Shown one piece after another: positions 1,822 to 6,148 of a stretch of DNA of 64,000 bases. Position 1 is the stretch's first letter. Every line of letters begins with the position of its first letter. Below the pieces are notes generated by a model. That model saw only the letters and a program-made list of their open reading frames with translations. It made no database searches and had not been told where the DNA came from. The position numbers and the translations under genes were made by a program. The stretch spans positions 102,822 through 166,821 of the forward strand of contig CBDBHK010000033.1 of assembly GCA_965205615.1 (NCBI GenBank), written 5' to 3'. Source of the DNA: Acidobacteriota bacterium. GTDB taxonomy: Bacteria > Acidobacteriota > UBA6911 > RPQK01 > CBDAPI01.

Positions 1822-2025
1822 ATGGCCACAGACGTTGTTAAACAGATTCGTAGAAGGACTCGCCGGAAGTTTTCCGCCGATGAGAAGAGCCGGATCGTCC
1901 TGGAGGGACTTCGGGGCGAAATCCCGATCACCGAGCTGTGTCGACAACAAGGTATTCAGCCATCGATCTATTACAAATGGTCGAAAGCCTTTCTGGATGC
2001 CGGCAAGAACGGGTTGACTCGGTAA
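1822..2025 (+). pseudogene. IS3-family transposase OrfA (HTH) N-terminal fragment, truncated remnant
   Basis: 67-aa ORF MATDVVKQIRRRTRRKFSADEKSRIVLEGLRGEIPITELCRQQGIQPSIYYKWSKAFLDAGKNGL matches the helix-turn-helix N-terminus of IS3/IS150-type OrfA. It stops after ~65 codons and no orfB follows. Confidence 0.5.
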
Positions 2026-2068
2026 ACGAAGTTGTCACAGTAAGATCTCTTCTTAGAGACCAATGTTG

Positions 2069-3205
2069 CTATGGTGGCGTTGGCTTGGCACTCTCTGCCA
2101 CACGTATGATCGCGTCGAGCTTCTCTTCGATCTCCGAGTCAATTTCTTCGGGTGGCACATACTGAGCGAGCTCATAAAAGCTCTTCTTTCTCATTAGATT
2201 AGGCAGGTCGAGCTTTTTGAAGTACTTCACGAACAGCGGCTCCAGGAAATCGTCGCTCACCTTGGCGTCGGTGCGCCATGGCGAGACTTTACCCAGCGTT
2301 TGCATCGCTCTCTCAACATCCTTGATGGACTCATGCATCGCGCGCATGCGCCGGTCGACTTCAGTGCTTGAAAATAGGGGTCCATGTGCTTCTTGTTCGG
2401 CCGATGCTATTGCATATCTCTCCAGAGTCGCTATGGAGCAAAAATAGTTTTCGATCTCCCGTCGCTCCCAACTTAGATATTCAATGCCATTAATCGTCGG
2501 AGTTTCATCTCCAGAGTGATCGAAAAGAACTGCGGCTTGCAGGTCCGGTAAAGCCTCTTTGAGGCCATAGTAGTGATTTCGGACCGATACCCAATGGCTC
2601 CCTACATAGTGCACAAACGGCCGTTTCAACACTCTATCAGCGTCTTTGTGGTGGAGACGCCTCGCGAACGCTTGCAATATGGCGAGGTCGGTCGAGCCTT
2701 CGAGGTAGAGCACCCATCCAGTCTGTGCTGCTTGACAATAGTGGTCGAAGCCAATCTCATTAAGCGCCTTCCGAACCTGGCTTCCCCGGTCATCAATCCG
2801 GTGCGGCGGCCCCACGAAGGCGATTACCATATCTTTTCTAGCGGCTTCGTTCAGGAGCACCTCGGAGTGGCTTGCAGCGATGATCTGGCTGCGACTCTCG
2901 GAGGCCGCATCTGTGAGCAGTTTATAGATCTCACGCTGGCGAAGAATTTCGAGGTGTGCGTCCGGCTCGTCGAGCAGGAGCACGGCGTCTGGGTTAGCGT
3001 ACATGTACGTCAGAATGAGCAGCGTCTGCTGCAAGCCCCGGCCACTGGAAGAAAGGTCGAGCGTAACCCCATGTTCCTGGTAGGTCATGGTGATCTCGCC
3101 GCGCTCCTTGATATAACGCGCGGGATTGAGCTTCGCCCCGAACAGATCCTCGATCTGCTCGACTAGCTTTTTCCCAATCCTCGGGCTGTTCCTGGTGAAT
3201 ACGGA
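2069..3205 (-). pseudogene. OLD-family ABC-type ATPase + Toprim nuclease (Gabija GajA / PARIS-like class), 5'-truncated (Walker A region missing)
   Basis: The reading frame is open from 3205 (no start codon; ORF finder reports 2069-3088). It contains an ABC Walker-B/D-loop (LLLDEPDAHL) and an H-loop (IIAASHSE). Toprim-like motifs follow: VLYLEGSTD (Glu) and AVLFDHSGDE (DxD). An N-terminal P-loop is absent. The frame ends ~28 bp from the oppositely oriented RT gene. Confidence 0.5.
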
Positions 3206-3232
3206 TTAAAGGTTGGGAAGCTACGGGAGACG

Positions 3233-4659
3233 TTGCATGCCAAAGCGAAGGGATCGCCCGACTACTGCTTTTATGCGCTGTACGACAAGGTGTATCGAGC
3301 CGATGTGATCGATCACGCCTACCGTCTTTGCCAGACCAATGGTGGAGCAGCAGGCGTCGATGGACAGACGTTCGAGGACATCGAGCAGTACGGACAGAAA
3401 CGGTGGCTGGACGAACTGGCGGAAGAACTTCGGACGAAACGGTATCGCCCGGAAGCTGTCCGGCGGGTCCATATACCCAAACCGGGCCAGCCAGGGCGGA
3501 CCAGACCGCTCGGAATCCCGAGGATCAAGGATCGTGTCGTGATGACGGCGGCGATGTGGGTTCTCGAAGCGATCTTCGAGGCTGACTTGCAGCCCGAACA
3601 ATACGCCTACCGCCCGAAGCGAAGTGCGCGTGGGACGCGGTTCGCCGCGTCCACGCGCTTCTGAAGTCGCGGCATTGGGAGGTAATCGACGCAGATTTGT
3701 CCGGCTACTTCGACACGATCCCGCATTTCGAGTTAATGAAGTCGGTGGCACGCCGCATCAGCGATCGGCACTTGTTGCGATTGATCAAGATGTGGCTTCA
3801 AGCCCCGGTGGAAGAGACCGATAGGCGGGGTCGCAAACATCGAACGAACCGGAACAAGAGTGAAGGTCGGGGGTGTCCTCAGGGCGCGCCGATCTCACCT
3901 CTGTTGGCGAATCTCTATATGCGGCGATTCATTCTGGGATGGAAGGTGCTCGGACACGAGGAGCGTTTTCAAGCGAAGGTCGTCAATTACGCGGATGATC
4001 TCGTGATCTGCTGCCACAGCCCCCACGCCGAACAGGCCATGGGCGCAATGCGAAGCGTGATGCGAGAACTGAAGCTGACGGTTAACGAAGAGAAGACGCA
4101 TATTTGTCGGCTTCCGGACGAATCGTTCGACTTTCTGGGTTACACCTTCGGGCGCTGCTACTCGAGGGCGGGTTTTCGCTATATTGGTCAACGCCCGTCC
4201 AAGAAGAAGATCAGGGCGGCTTGTCGCCAGATCAGTGAGTGGACCGCCTTGCGCTGGTGTTGGCTAGACGCTGAAGAACAAGTCGACCGACTCAACCGAA
4301 TGATGGTTGGGTGGGCCAACTACTTCTGCCAAGGCCCGGCGTCCAGCGCCTATCGAAGGATTACCCAACATGCCCGACAAAGGCTCCGTCGCTGGTTGCG
4401 CCGTAAACATAAGGTGCAGGGTTGGGGTTATTCACGTTTCTCCGACGCATACCTGCATGATGAGCTTGGACTTGTCCAGCTGCGCTTGTGTGACCGCAAC
4501 CTTCCGTGGGCGAAAGCACGAGTCCTTGGCCGAAAGCCGGATGCGGGAAATCCGCACGTCCGGTTTGATGAGCGGGGGGTGGAAACGGAGTATGGTCGAG
4601 ATCGTGTGACACTCGCAAACGAAAGGGCGAGCCAACAGGGAACACAAACTTCGACCTAA
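3233..4659 (+). mobile_element. Group II intron-encoded protein (reverse transcriptase + maturase X, no En domain); frameshifted near 3620-3635 and lacking upstream intron domains I-III
   Basis: Two ORFs in different frames (3233-3664 and 3697-4659). RT domains 0-2: CQTNGGAAGVDGQTFEDI, YRPKRSA. After a -1/+1 shift come VRRVHALLKSRHWEVIDADLSGYFDTIPH, the YADD active site, and maturase motif RLNRMMVGWANYF. The frame-1 and frame-2 translations overlap around 3620-3640. Only ~28 bp separate the ORF start from the truncated ATPase gene, so no room exists for ribozyme domains I-III. Confidence 0.75.
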
Positions 4660-4730
4660 ACCACCGCGCCACCTCTCGACTCTACCAGTCGAGTCGTGGA
4701 TCTCTTACGTAAAAGGCCTCGCGGGTATCC

Positions 4731-4857
4731 CGTCCTATCCGAGAATTCGGCCGCGCGTAACCCACTGTGGGAGTTCGACTTGTAAGCGCCTACAATGGCG
4801 GCATGAAGGCCGAAATCCACCAACTTCAAGTGCTACCGGGGGCCAGTCCAGGGGGTC
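4731..4857 (+). repeat. ~127-bp repeat, copy A (about 79% identical to copy B at 5700-5827), 72 nt downstream of the intron-protein stop
   Basis: Pairwise comparison by eye. Shared blocks are cgtcctatccga, taacccactgt, ttcgacttgtaagcgcc, acaatggc, gtgaaggccga, cttcaagtg, taccggg and ccagggggtc, separated by diverged blocks. Confidence 0.7.
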
Positions 4858-5314
4858 CGTCGTGGGGTAAGACCACCTTCCAAGGGTTGTGCCCAAAGTG
4901 TGCCCGCGGGAAACTCACTCCAGCTCACTCCAGCCAAAATAGCGGTTTCGGAGCGACGGAATTTCTGCTTATTTGGAAGGTACTTACAGAACCGGCTTCC
5001 AGGACTTAAAATCCTGTGGGTCGTCGGGTGGGTCGGAGAGACAAGCTAAGTGCCCGGCAATACTCAGAAAGCATGCCTACCTGAACCTGAAATTACCGAA
5101 TACTCAACCAAAGCATTCTCCTGGTCTCCCGGTGTACACGAGCGTATTGATAGCCACCTATATAGCCGCGCGAGGTGAGGGCCAAGGAGAAGCCATGGAG
5201 ACAAATTCATGAGGCCTTTTCATCTCTGGGCAAAGCGGGGCCGGAAGAAGAACAGTCCGGCTCAAAAAGGGAGCAACGCTCACAGCTCGGCGAGTGTGAA
5301 TTGTTGCTGAAGAA

Positions 5315-5662
5315 GTGATCGCTTACGGACTTCGCCGCCATCTTGTGACGCTCGGCACTAATTCTTGGACAGACAAGACAATAAGATCGCGTGCAATGCC
5401 GAAACAACGAAGCGATTTGTTACAGGAGCCTAATTTGGCAAGCGGCATCGATCTCAAGGAGCAGACCCTTGCAATGCTGCAGACGCTGACCCCCAAAGAA
5501 GAACAGATTGTTCGGATGCGCTACGGAATTGACGACGGAATCGAATGCACCCTCGAAGAAGTCGGCCAACAGTTTTCTGCGACTCCTGAGCGGGTCCGTC
5601 AGATCCAGGACCAGGCACTGCGAAAACTGCGCTACGTGTCACTCGGAGAGGAACTACCTTAG
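5315..5662 (+). pseudogene. Orphan sigma-70 (RpoD/RpoS-like) region 4 fragment
   Basis: C-terminal 75 aa (LTPKEEQIVRMRYGIDDGIECTLEEVGQQFSATPERVRQIQDQALRKLR) is a near-canonical sigma-70 region 4.1/4.2. The preceding 40 aa have no sigma homology and regions 1-3 are absent. Confidence 0.5.
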
Positions 5663-5699
5663 AGGGTTGCCCTTCCTTTGCTGCGGCAACTGCGCATGG

Positions 5700-5827
5700 C
5701 GTCCTATCCGAAAAATGAGCCGAGTCGTAACCCACTGTAGGATTTCGACTTGTAAGCGCCCACAATGGCAGGGTGAAGGCCGATACGTGCCCGCTTCAAG
5801 TGTTACCGGGACCAGTTCCAGGGGGTC
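5700..5827 (+). repeat. ~128-bp repeat, copy B (see copy A), 38 nt downstream of the sigma-70 fragment stop
   Basis: Same conserved blocks and same orientation as copy A. Flanks on both sides are unrelated. Confidence 0.7.
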
Positions 5828-6148
5828 GTCATCATCTAAAGGGAAATCCCACCCCCTAAGACTAACTTTTTTCTTTTCGACGATTGAGTAGCAATCTGCT
5901 AGCGAGGGAACAGCTTCCACTTCGTTTCTTCAGCGTCGCCGCGAGTAATCGCCTCCTGGACGTCACGACCAAGTCGGTGTGGCTTTGCGGGCTCCAGAAA
6001 GTAGAGGGTGTAAAGTCCAGGGAAGCTGATGGAGGTCGTCAGGGGGTATACAGACGGGTTCCTCGCACCTTGATTTGACGTCGCCCCTCGCGTGGTCGTG
6101 CAGGGTTGGCGAATTCCGGCCCCACCCCACCTCTGCGGGGGGCCAACT

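Follow-up and report, generated by a model that had tools for sequence, protein, structure and literature searches.

How did pieces of an insertion sequence (IS), a phage-defence nuclease gene, a group II intron and a sigma-70 region 4 come to lie side by side in one part of an Acidobacteriota contig, and can any of them still work? We have examined this question in a stretch of 64,000 nucleotides (nt) from contig CBDBHK010000033.1 (assembly GCA_965205615.1), hereafter called the window, in which the pieces lie between positions 1738 and 5827. An initial annotation, made from the sequence alone, had described a patchwork of 4 fragments, namely an IS3 OrfA stub, an OLD-like ABC-ATPase/Toprim gene, a group II intron reverse transcriptase (RT) and an orphan sigma-70 region 4, and had proposed that a single deletion removed the 5' ends of both the ATPase and RT genes. 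Open reading frame (ORF) listing, translation and profile searches placed all 4 pieces at the positions given for them, and each had been correctly identified, although the inventory had overlooked 2 further pieces, both derived from IS200/IS605 elements (4729-4945 and 5696-5827). The single deletion was not supported by comparison with related contigs.

We conclude that the region is probably a non-functional mosaic, which arose through a succession of illegitimate joins where an Acidobacteriota chromosome is rich in IS elements. What it shows is ordinary mobile-element decay, together with a dead remnant of a nuclease gene for phage defence. The ATPase, intron and IS pieces are all incapable of function, because the first lacks its Walker A motif, the second its catalytic 5' half, and the third both of its ends as well as its transposase; the sigma region-4 ORF is the sole piece of the region that may still work. 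The region illustrates, for one environmental genome, the way in which IS elements, introns and scraps of defence genes accumulate and erode, and it is of little consequence for biology at large. It also carries a caution for annotation, in that the 339-amino acid (aa) ATPase remnant, carried by 7 contigs, and the RT halves are annotated as genes in public assemblies.

Two truncated genes and the junction between them

The analysis of this junction depended on 2 near-identical metagenome contigs, L005 and L006, which we found by exact-protein look-ups, and on the contig L001, which carries an intact relative of the ATPase gene. The minus-strand frame at 2069-3205 matches the last quarter of the AAA_21 and AAA_15 ABC-ATPase models (positions 225-304 of 304 for AAA_21 in the Pfam profile search), and continues with 250 residues that have no Pfam match. 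It corresponds to the last 378 codons, or residues ~202-579, of the 579-aa protein encoded on L001 (P0001), with 96% aa identity. At the DNA level, window positions 2016-3205 are 98.7% identical to positions 10605-11793 of L001, and the similarity ends abruptly on both sides. This scrap of 1190 nt, identified by DNA and aa identity, by AAA_21 and by PADLOC, takes in codons ~202-579 and the stop codon (2069-2071), and extends over 53 nt of the 3' flank (2016-2068). The DNA on either side is unrelated to it, being the interior of the IS3-like element on its 3' side and the interior of the group II intron on its 5' side. Of the ATPase motifs it retains Walker B, the signature, the D-loop and the H-loop, whereas the start codon has been lost along with Walker A and the Q-loop. 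In P0001 the Walker A motif, GPNNSGKTS, occupies residues 29-37; it is present in the intact homologs and gone from the window copy, where homology stops at 3205, before that part of the protein is reached, which bears out the description of a gene with neither Walker A nor start. We also observed that positions 3173-3175 read CCC in the window and CC in both L005 and the intact donor L001, a difference, due to a true mutation or to a homopolymer error, by which the ~10 codons at the start of the remnant fall out of frame. With the start, Walker A and Q-loop missing, and with this additional C, the window copy is dead. Since OLD function requires both ATPase and nuclease activities (PMC7049728), a scrap that lacks Walker A cannot function.

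On the plus strand, RVT_1 and GIIM matches (Pfam) are split over 2 frames, 3233-3664 and 3697-4659, and domains V/VI of a group II intron were recognized at 4532-4685 by the Rfam model Intron_gpII (RF00029) with 45.2 bits, against a gathering score of 40 bits; the same scan gave no match to domains I-IV for this truncated copy. An intact copy is present in L006 (positions 17444-15445; 2000 nt) with an intron-encoded protein (IEP) of 489 aa and an HD-domain gene as its 5' neighbour. Its first part, L006 17444-16924, has the GTGCG start and a D1D4-4 Rfam match of 99.5 bits, and the ends of the intron could be set from a paralogous site in L006 that contains no intron and that matches the joined exons at 29 of 30 nt. 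That site (29/30 nt) belongs to a small composite relic at L006 19805-20164, which also contains an IS3-like left end and a reversed piece of an IS200-like right end. By comparison with the intact copy, 1481 of the 2000 nt of the intron, those at its 3' end, remain in the window (3205-4685), and the missing first 521 nt comprise the 5' GTGCG, domains I-III, the beginning of domain IV and 6 IEP codons; IEP codons 7-489 were located at 3206-4659 by tblastn with the intact protein. A 2-nt insertion at 3630-3631, within the RT-2 motif YRPKRSA, shifts the reading frame. The 5' truncation and the frameshift in RT domain 2 had both been called correctly. This mutated patch recurs, minus one G, in a 344-aa IEP fragment on 6 contigs, so that the frameshifted lineage is real.

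In bacteria, group II introns frequently occur as fragments inside other mobile DNA, and the window copy conforms to this pattern: it is 5'-truncated and ORF-frameshifted, lies among IS relics and belongs to a multi-copy family, of which truncated and frameshifted IEPs are common in the protein collection. Unlike an aborted retro-insertion, however, this intron lost its 5' part in place, since it shares its 3' flank with the intact copy in the sister strain. The possibility that the intron target was duplicated beside the sigma ORF was ruled out, there being no homology across the insertion site at that position. A second group II intron signal was seen at window positions 60149-60742, where D1D4-2 (111.9 bits) and domain V/VI (59.6 bits) matches lie ~400 nt apart; this intron looks ORF-less or degenerate, and tblastn with the IEP of the first intron gave no match there.

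A three-way DNA alignment across the junction defined the join precisely. Window positions 1-3207 are 99.96% identical to L005 and positions 3205-20120 are 99.65% identical to L006; the junction reads ...GGTGAATACGGATT|AAAGG..., in which the 3 nt ATT (3205-3207) are common to both parents, that is, to the end of the L005-type sequence and to the intron interior at intron position 522. The spacing of ~28 bp that had been reported between the 2 break points therefore does not exist: the truncated ends abut with a 3-nt overlap, and position 3233 is merely the first in-frame TTG. In L005, homology to the intact ATPase gene breaks off at exactly the base where it does in the window, and a 3'-truncated ATP-grasp gene follows; the window and L005 share 2 more nt (TT) beyond the ATPase homology. 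Because the ends abut, the same ATPase end occurs with a different partner, and an intact intron exists in the population, a single deletion cannot explain all 3 states. At least 2 events at one nucleotide are required under any ordering.

We envisage that the ATPase gene would have been truncated at 3205 before the present junction arose, and that a later deletion or rearrangement, mediated by the ATT microhomology, would have fused this earlier end with the resident intron at intron position 522. The same join would have removed ribozyme domains I-III together with the IEP start, and a separate 2-nt insertion would have broken the RT. Several considerations weigh against this order of events. 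Every ordering needs 2 independent joins that lie 0-2 nt apart at 3205-3207, a coincidence that is improbable by chance and is unexplained; the window's junction was found in no other assembly by exact look-ups of the window-specific proteins; and scans of the genome collection and of the JGI metagenomes did not find the truncated ATPase-end sequence common to the window and L005. In a homolog search for independent copies of the junction, the matches were all further decayed copies of the intron whose N-termini were intact.

The first alternative starts from an ATPase gene and an intron that were both complete, has a single deletion remove both 5' ends at once, and treats the L005 arrangement as a later second event. 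It accounts directly for truncated ends that abut, and its microhomology with the intact ATPase gene, just 1 nt, is yet compatible with illegitimate joining. We consider it improbable, inasmuch as L005 carries the same ATPase end on another gene, together with the shared TT past the ATPase homology, the 5' neighbour of the intact intron in L006 is the HD-domain gene and not an ATPase, and no contig that we examined has ATPase and intron adjacent to each other in a longer form.

Alternatively, 3205-3207 might be a chimeric join, made by the metagenome assembler or present in a chimeric long read, between an L005-type end and an L006-type interior. The window is indeed an exact concatenation of 2 sequences that are separate in other samples, at the identities given above, and neither protein look-ups nor DNA scans produced an independent record of the join. 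Yet a 3-nt overlap is unlike the joins made by overlap or graph assemblers, and both sides of the junction carry private mutations: the left part has a 129-nt tandem duplication and the extra C, and the right part has its own form of the RT frameshift patch, which has one G fewer in the 344-aa IEP fragment on the 6 contigs. With private mutations on both sides, the window looks like a distinct strain and not like a mixture, and a chimera appears very unlikely.

A third explanation invokes one-ended mobilisation by IS1380-family elements, which is established for ISEcp1. Here an IS1380 element, by missing its own right end, would have mobilised the DNA next to it as far as a surrogate end at 3205-3207, and the block ending at 3207 would be the distal end of the resulting ISEcp1-like transposition unit. 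Such a unit would explain, as no other reading does, a fixed right boundary with differing neighbours and without coincidence, and an IS1380-family transposase (E 8e-115) is suitably placed and oriented in L005. Against this, the segment 3175-3215 scores 11 when compared with the inferred right end of the IS, where the background mean is 10.8; L005 has no target-site duplication, and its 2 flanks are pieces of 2 different genes; and the left end of the putative unit falls outside the window. That the block ends in a surrogate IS end we regard as highly improbable, and we give just as little credence to the corollary that the unit inserted into an ATP-grasp gene in one strain and, in the window strain, into the intron. 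The IS1380-family IS itself occupies L005 12990-14500, to the left of the window and ~30 nt from position 1, and its transposase gene is directed towards the window's left end; on its far side is a 5'-truncated methionine-synthase-like gene.

Two other origins for the shared break point were rejected. The L005 flank TTGTATGGTCAG was considered as an IS3-like terminal repeat, and proved to lie inside ATP-grasp coding sequence that aligns to the family models nearly to the junction. Precise excision of the IS200 type was set aside since there is no common motif to the 5' side of the 5 left-end copies, and ATT is not among the sequences found there.

The ATPase family and its C-terminal domain

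We scored 8000 candidates in a homolog search with the ATPase fragment, all with E ≤ 0.001; the best 120 of these were 65-75% identical to the fragment, and one, P0001, was 96% identical. Family members are ~580 aa in length. The intact ATPase/Toprim family is very large and carries no name in the sources consulted; truncated and frameshifted copies of this ATPase are common in the protein collection.

The gene for P0001 is flanked by hsdS and hsdR in a type I restriction-modification (R-M) operon, and the same contig, which is plasmid-like, contains type I-E cas genes, parA/parG and transposases. The suggestion that the ATPase fragment came from a defence island is thus upheld by a 98.7%-identical intact gene inside a type I R-M operon beside type I-E cas genes, and the fragment is a piece of a horizontally circulating OLD-like defence gene. 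The further suggestion that its loss marks a defence locus decayed in situ did not hold: the 1190-nt scrap stands alone, with no hsdM, hsdS or hsdR remnant and no paralog of the ATPase, intact or otherwise, within the 64-kb window. Linkage to type I R-M systems is not a trait of the family, as 2 of the 3 contexts are without R-M genes. Two further family members stand alone in unrelated neighbourhoods, and the genes downstream of the 3 intact homologs encode HsdR, a sulfatase and an ammonium transporter, respectively, with no UvrD-like helicase among them. Because members occur alone in unrelated neighbourhoods, the ATPase gene is a stand-alone unit, which is the layout described for Class 1 OLD nucleases (PMC7049728).

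Whether the C-terminal part of the protein is a Toprim domain, as had been claimed, received different answers from profile and fold comparisons. The C-terminal 240 aa, encoded on the minus strand at 2072-2791, had no match in Pfam or PADLOC when searched alone, and a PDB profile search aligned ATPase parts only, with the Thermus scotoductus OLD structure 6p74 as the best match (E 8e-10). A full-length AlphaFold 2 model was poor in the ATPase half, with predicted local distance difference test (pLDDT) values of < 50 for residues 1-193, and we therefore used a domain-only model. This model, with a pLDDT of 82.8, had OLD C-terminal regions, AriB and GajA as its best Foldseek matches, and is consistent with an architecture of the OLD C-terminal-region/AriB type, in which a helical region comes after a Toprim-like core. 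Five acidic residues are invariant across 28 homologs; the canonical DxD is not conserved, its consensus being FDRLE. "OLD-like ATPase/Toprim" is probably the best description of the family, and its membership in Toprim is moderately supported, by predicted fold only.

Among known systems, Class 1 OLD proteins (P2 Old and Thermus scotoductus OLD) offer a close parallel. They likewise carry, within a single protein of ~580 aa, an N-terminal ABC ATPase and a C-terminal region of Toprim type, predicted from its fold in the present family, and likewise have no UvrD-like partner, as in the 3 contexts examined, and 6p74, the best PDB sequence match, was also among the top fold matches. They differ in that the window copy amounts to the C-terminal two thirds only and is dead, and in that the DxD motif is not conserved in the family. 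With regard to PADLOC, the fragment matched AriA, NsnB, AriAB and GajA models, although its C-terminal domain alone remained unmatched. The best models were those for AriA of the PARIS system (E 8e-21 for the intact homolog), which match the ATPase part only, and the model for fused AriAB spans the ATPase/Toprim boundary. However, the C-terminal domain alone is not matched by the model for AriB (a DUF4435 Toprim protein), and the protein of this family is a single polypeptide. Gabija differs from the family as well, since no GajB helicase is adjacent to the ATPase gene in the window or in the 3 homolog contexts. What emerges as a lead is a very widespread OLD-like nuclease family, with thousands of members, whose predicted nuclease domain, if taken by itself, escapes the present models of Pfam and PADLOC.

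The insertion-sequence relics and the sigma region-4 ORF

The ORF at 1822-2025 (67 aa) matches Pfam HTH_Tnp_1 (E 5e-10) and clusters at 90% identity with 108-aa OrfA proteins annotated as transposases, which are present in many copies per genome; by this clustering, ~64 of 108 OrfA codons survive. Homology to the ATPase donor begins at 2016, so that the stop codon of the stub (2023-2025) is supplied by foreign sequence. The true left end of the element (TGTATCCCGTCAGCAGC...) is visible in L006 and in another contig, L009, 46 nt to the left of window position 1738. The IS piece is therefore cut on both sides, with the first ~46 nt of its left end and everything beyond codon 64 missing, and what remains is an internal piece on the plus strand at 1738-2015, consisting of part of the 5' leader and OrfA codons 1-64. 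The window contains no OrfB (DDE/rve) and no terminal repeat for this stub, and the NCBIfam model for IS66 accessory proteins scores above the IS3 model, both being below cut-off. An IS3-family origin is nonetheless likely, in view of the TG-starting left end in L009 and L006 and the OrfA-type helix-turn-helix. Of the annotation as an IS3 OrfA stub, then, the transposase OrfA part stands and the family is likely, but the IS-derived DNA extends over 1738-2015 and not over 1822-2025.

The 2 pieces that had been overlooked are related to each other through a direct repeat, 4731-4857 and 5700-5827, with 81% identity between the copies. The first piece, 4729-4945 on the plus strand, is 86% identical to positions 5413-5623 of contig L011. 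In L010, an Acidobacteriota metagenome-assembled genome contig, the left end and a counterpart of window positions 4847-4945 flank a frameshifted Y1 transposase gene (Y1_Tnp, E 4e-24), and by these matches the repeat is the left end of an IS200/IS605-family element. The segment 4729-4945 is an ORF-less miniature derivative in which left end is joined to right end, and 5696-5827 (plus strand), which is 81-83% identical to 4731-4857 and to L010 4175-4295, is a solo left end and the second copy of the direct repeat. The window thus resembles IS200/IS605 elements in having conserved left and right ends, here joined without the Y1 (HUH) transposase gene, and differs from them in that the 4 copies give no covariation support for structures at the ends. 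A structured RNA was also considered for the direct repeat and discarded, as there was no Rfam match at E ≤ 1 and no covarying pair on either strand among the 4 copies.

Between the 2 copies of this repeat is the sigma-related sequence. The ORF at 5315-5662 matches only Sigma70_r4 in Pfam (E 4e-15); it also matches profiles for the RpoD C-terminus (E 5e-24) and for MzaA (E 3e-20), and nothing similar to sigma regions 2 or 3 was seen, as judged by eye, in a three-frame translation of the upstream 500 nt. It shares the region 4.2 helix-turn-helix with RpoD-type sigma-70 proteins and with MzaA of the MZA defence system, and differs from both in its length of ~75 aa and in being without regions 1-3; it cannot be a sigma factor.

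Although the initial annotation was right that only region 4 is present, its status as a fragment is doubtful. The 10 closest protein clusters are 71-97% identical to it and 69-106 aa in length, and 8 of them fall within 69-76 aa and use the same start. Homology at the DNA level is limited to a unit of ~305 nt (window 5338-5642), which occurs at a second locus in 4 Acidobacteriota contigs, beside genes for alcohol dehydrogenase, aldehyde dehydrogenase and a thiamine pyrophosphate enzyme and with IS debris upstream. Over the stretch that corresponds to window 5424-5437, both copies of the unit keep AGGAG (5424-5428 in the window), the 6-nt spacing and the TTG start, which defines a 75-codon ORF on the plus strand at 5435-5662. 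A 5-nt insertion or deletion between the window and L006 (5408-5412) falls upstream of this start. Over 66 codons, with 12 synonymous and 15 non-synonymous changes, the ratio of non-synonymous to synonymous substitution rates (dN/dS) was 0.35, which, though the sample is small, suggests something unlike a long-dead fragment. The ORF looks intact relative to its family, and on account of its short relatives, the conserved ribosome-binding site and TTG start, and the dN/dS value, we list 5435-5662 as possibly a functional mini-gene and not a product of decay. That it encodes a functional, stand-alone sigma region-4 mini-protein, belonging to a small Acidobacteriota family of 69-76 aa, we propose tentatively, leaning somewhat against it. 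Were this so, the mini-protein could compete with sigma factors for the beta-flap of RNA polymerase, or could bind -35-like DNA as a minimal helix-turn-helix regulator, and it may travel with mobile DNA. The small family of sigma region-4-only ORFs, with its signs of being real genes, is the other lead to come from this region.

Additional features of the window

To the left of the patchwork, the private duplication mentioned above is exact and in frame: 129 nt, or 43 codons, are repeated in tandem at 282-539 within a xylose-isomerase-like TIM-barrel gene (86-1207), and the repetition is absent from L005. Between this gene and the IS stub, the minus strand contains at ~1385-1560 a cysteine-rich frame without a start codon (...DNDCDGRTDCADQLDCRDDCACSCEPKNADCTVDNECCSLVCKNNGRCQ*) and without a Pfam match, which may be a further gene remnant. 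Farther to the right, 2 inverted copies of a 1749-nt IS1380-family element, 99-100% identical to each other, occupy 13623-15371 and 55937-57672 and bracket ~40.5 kb, in an arrangement like that of a composite transposon or of an inversion-prone segment.

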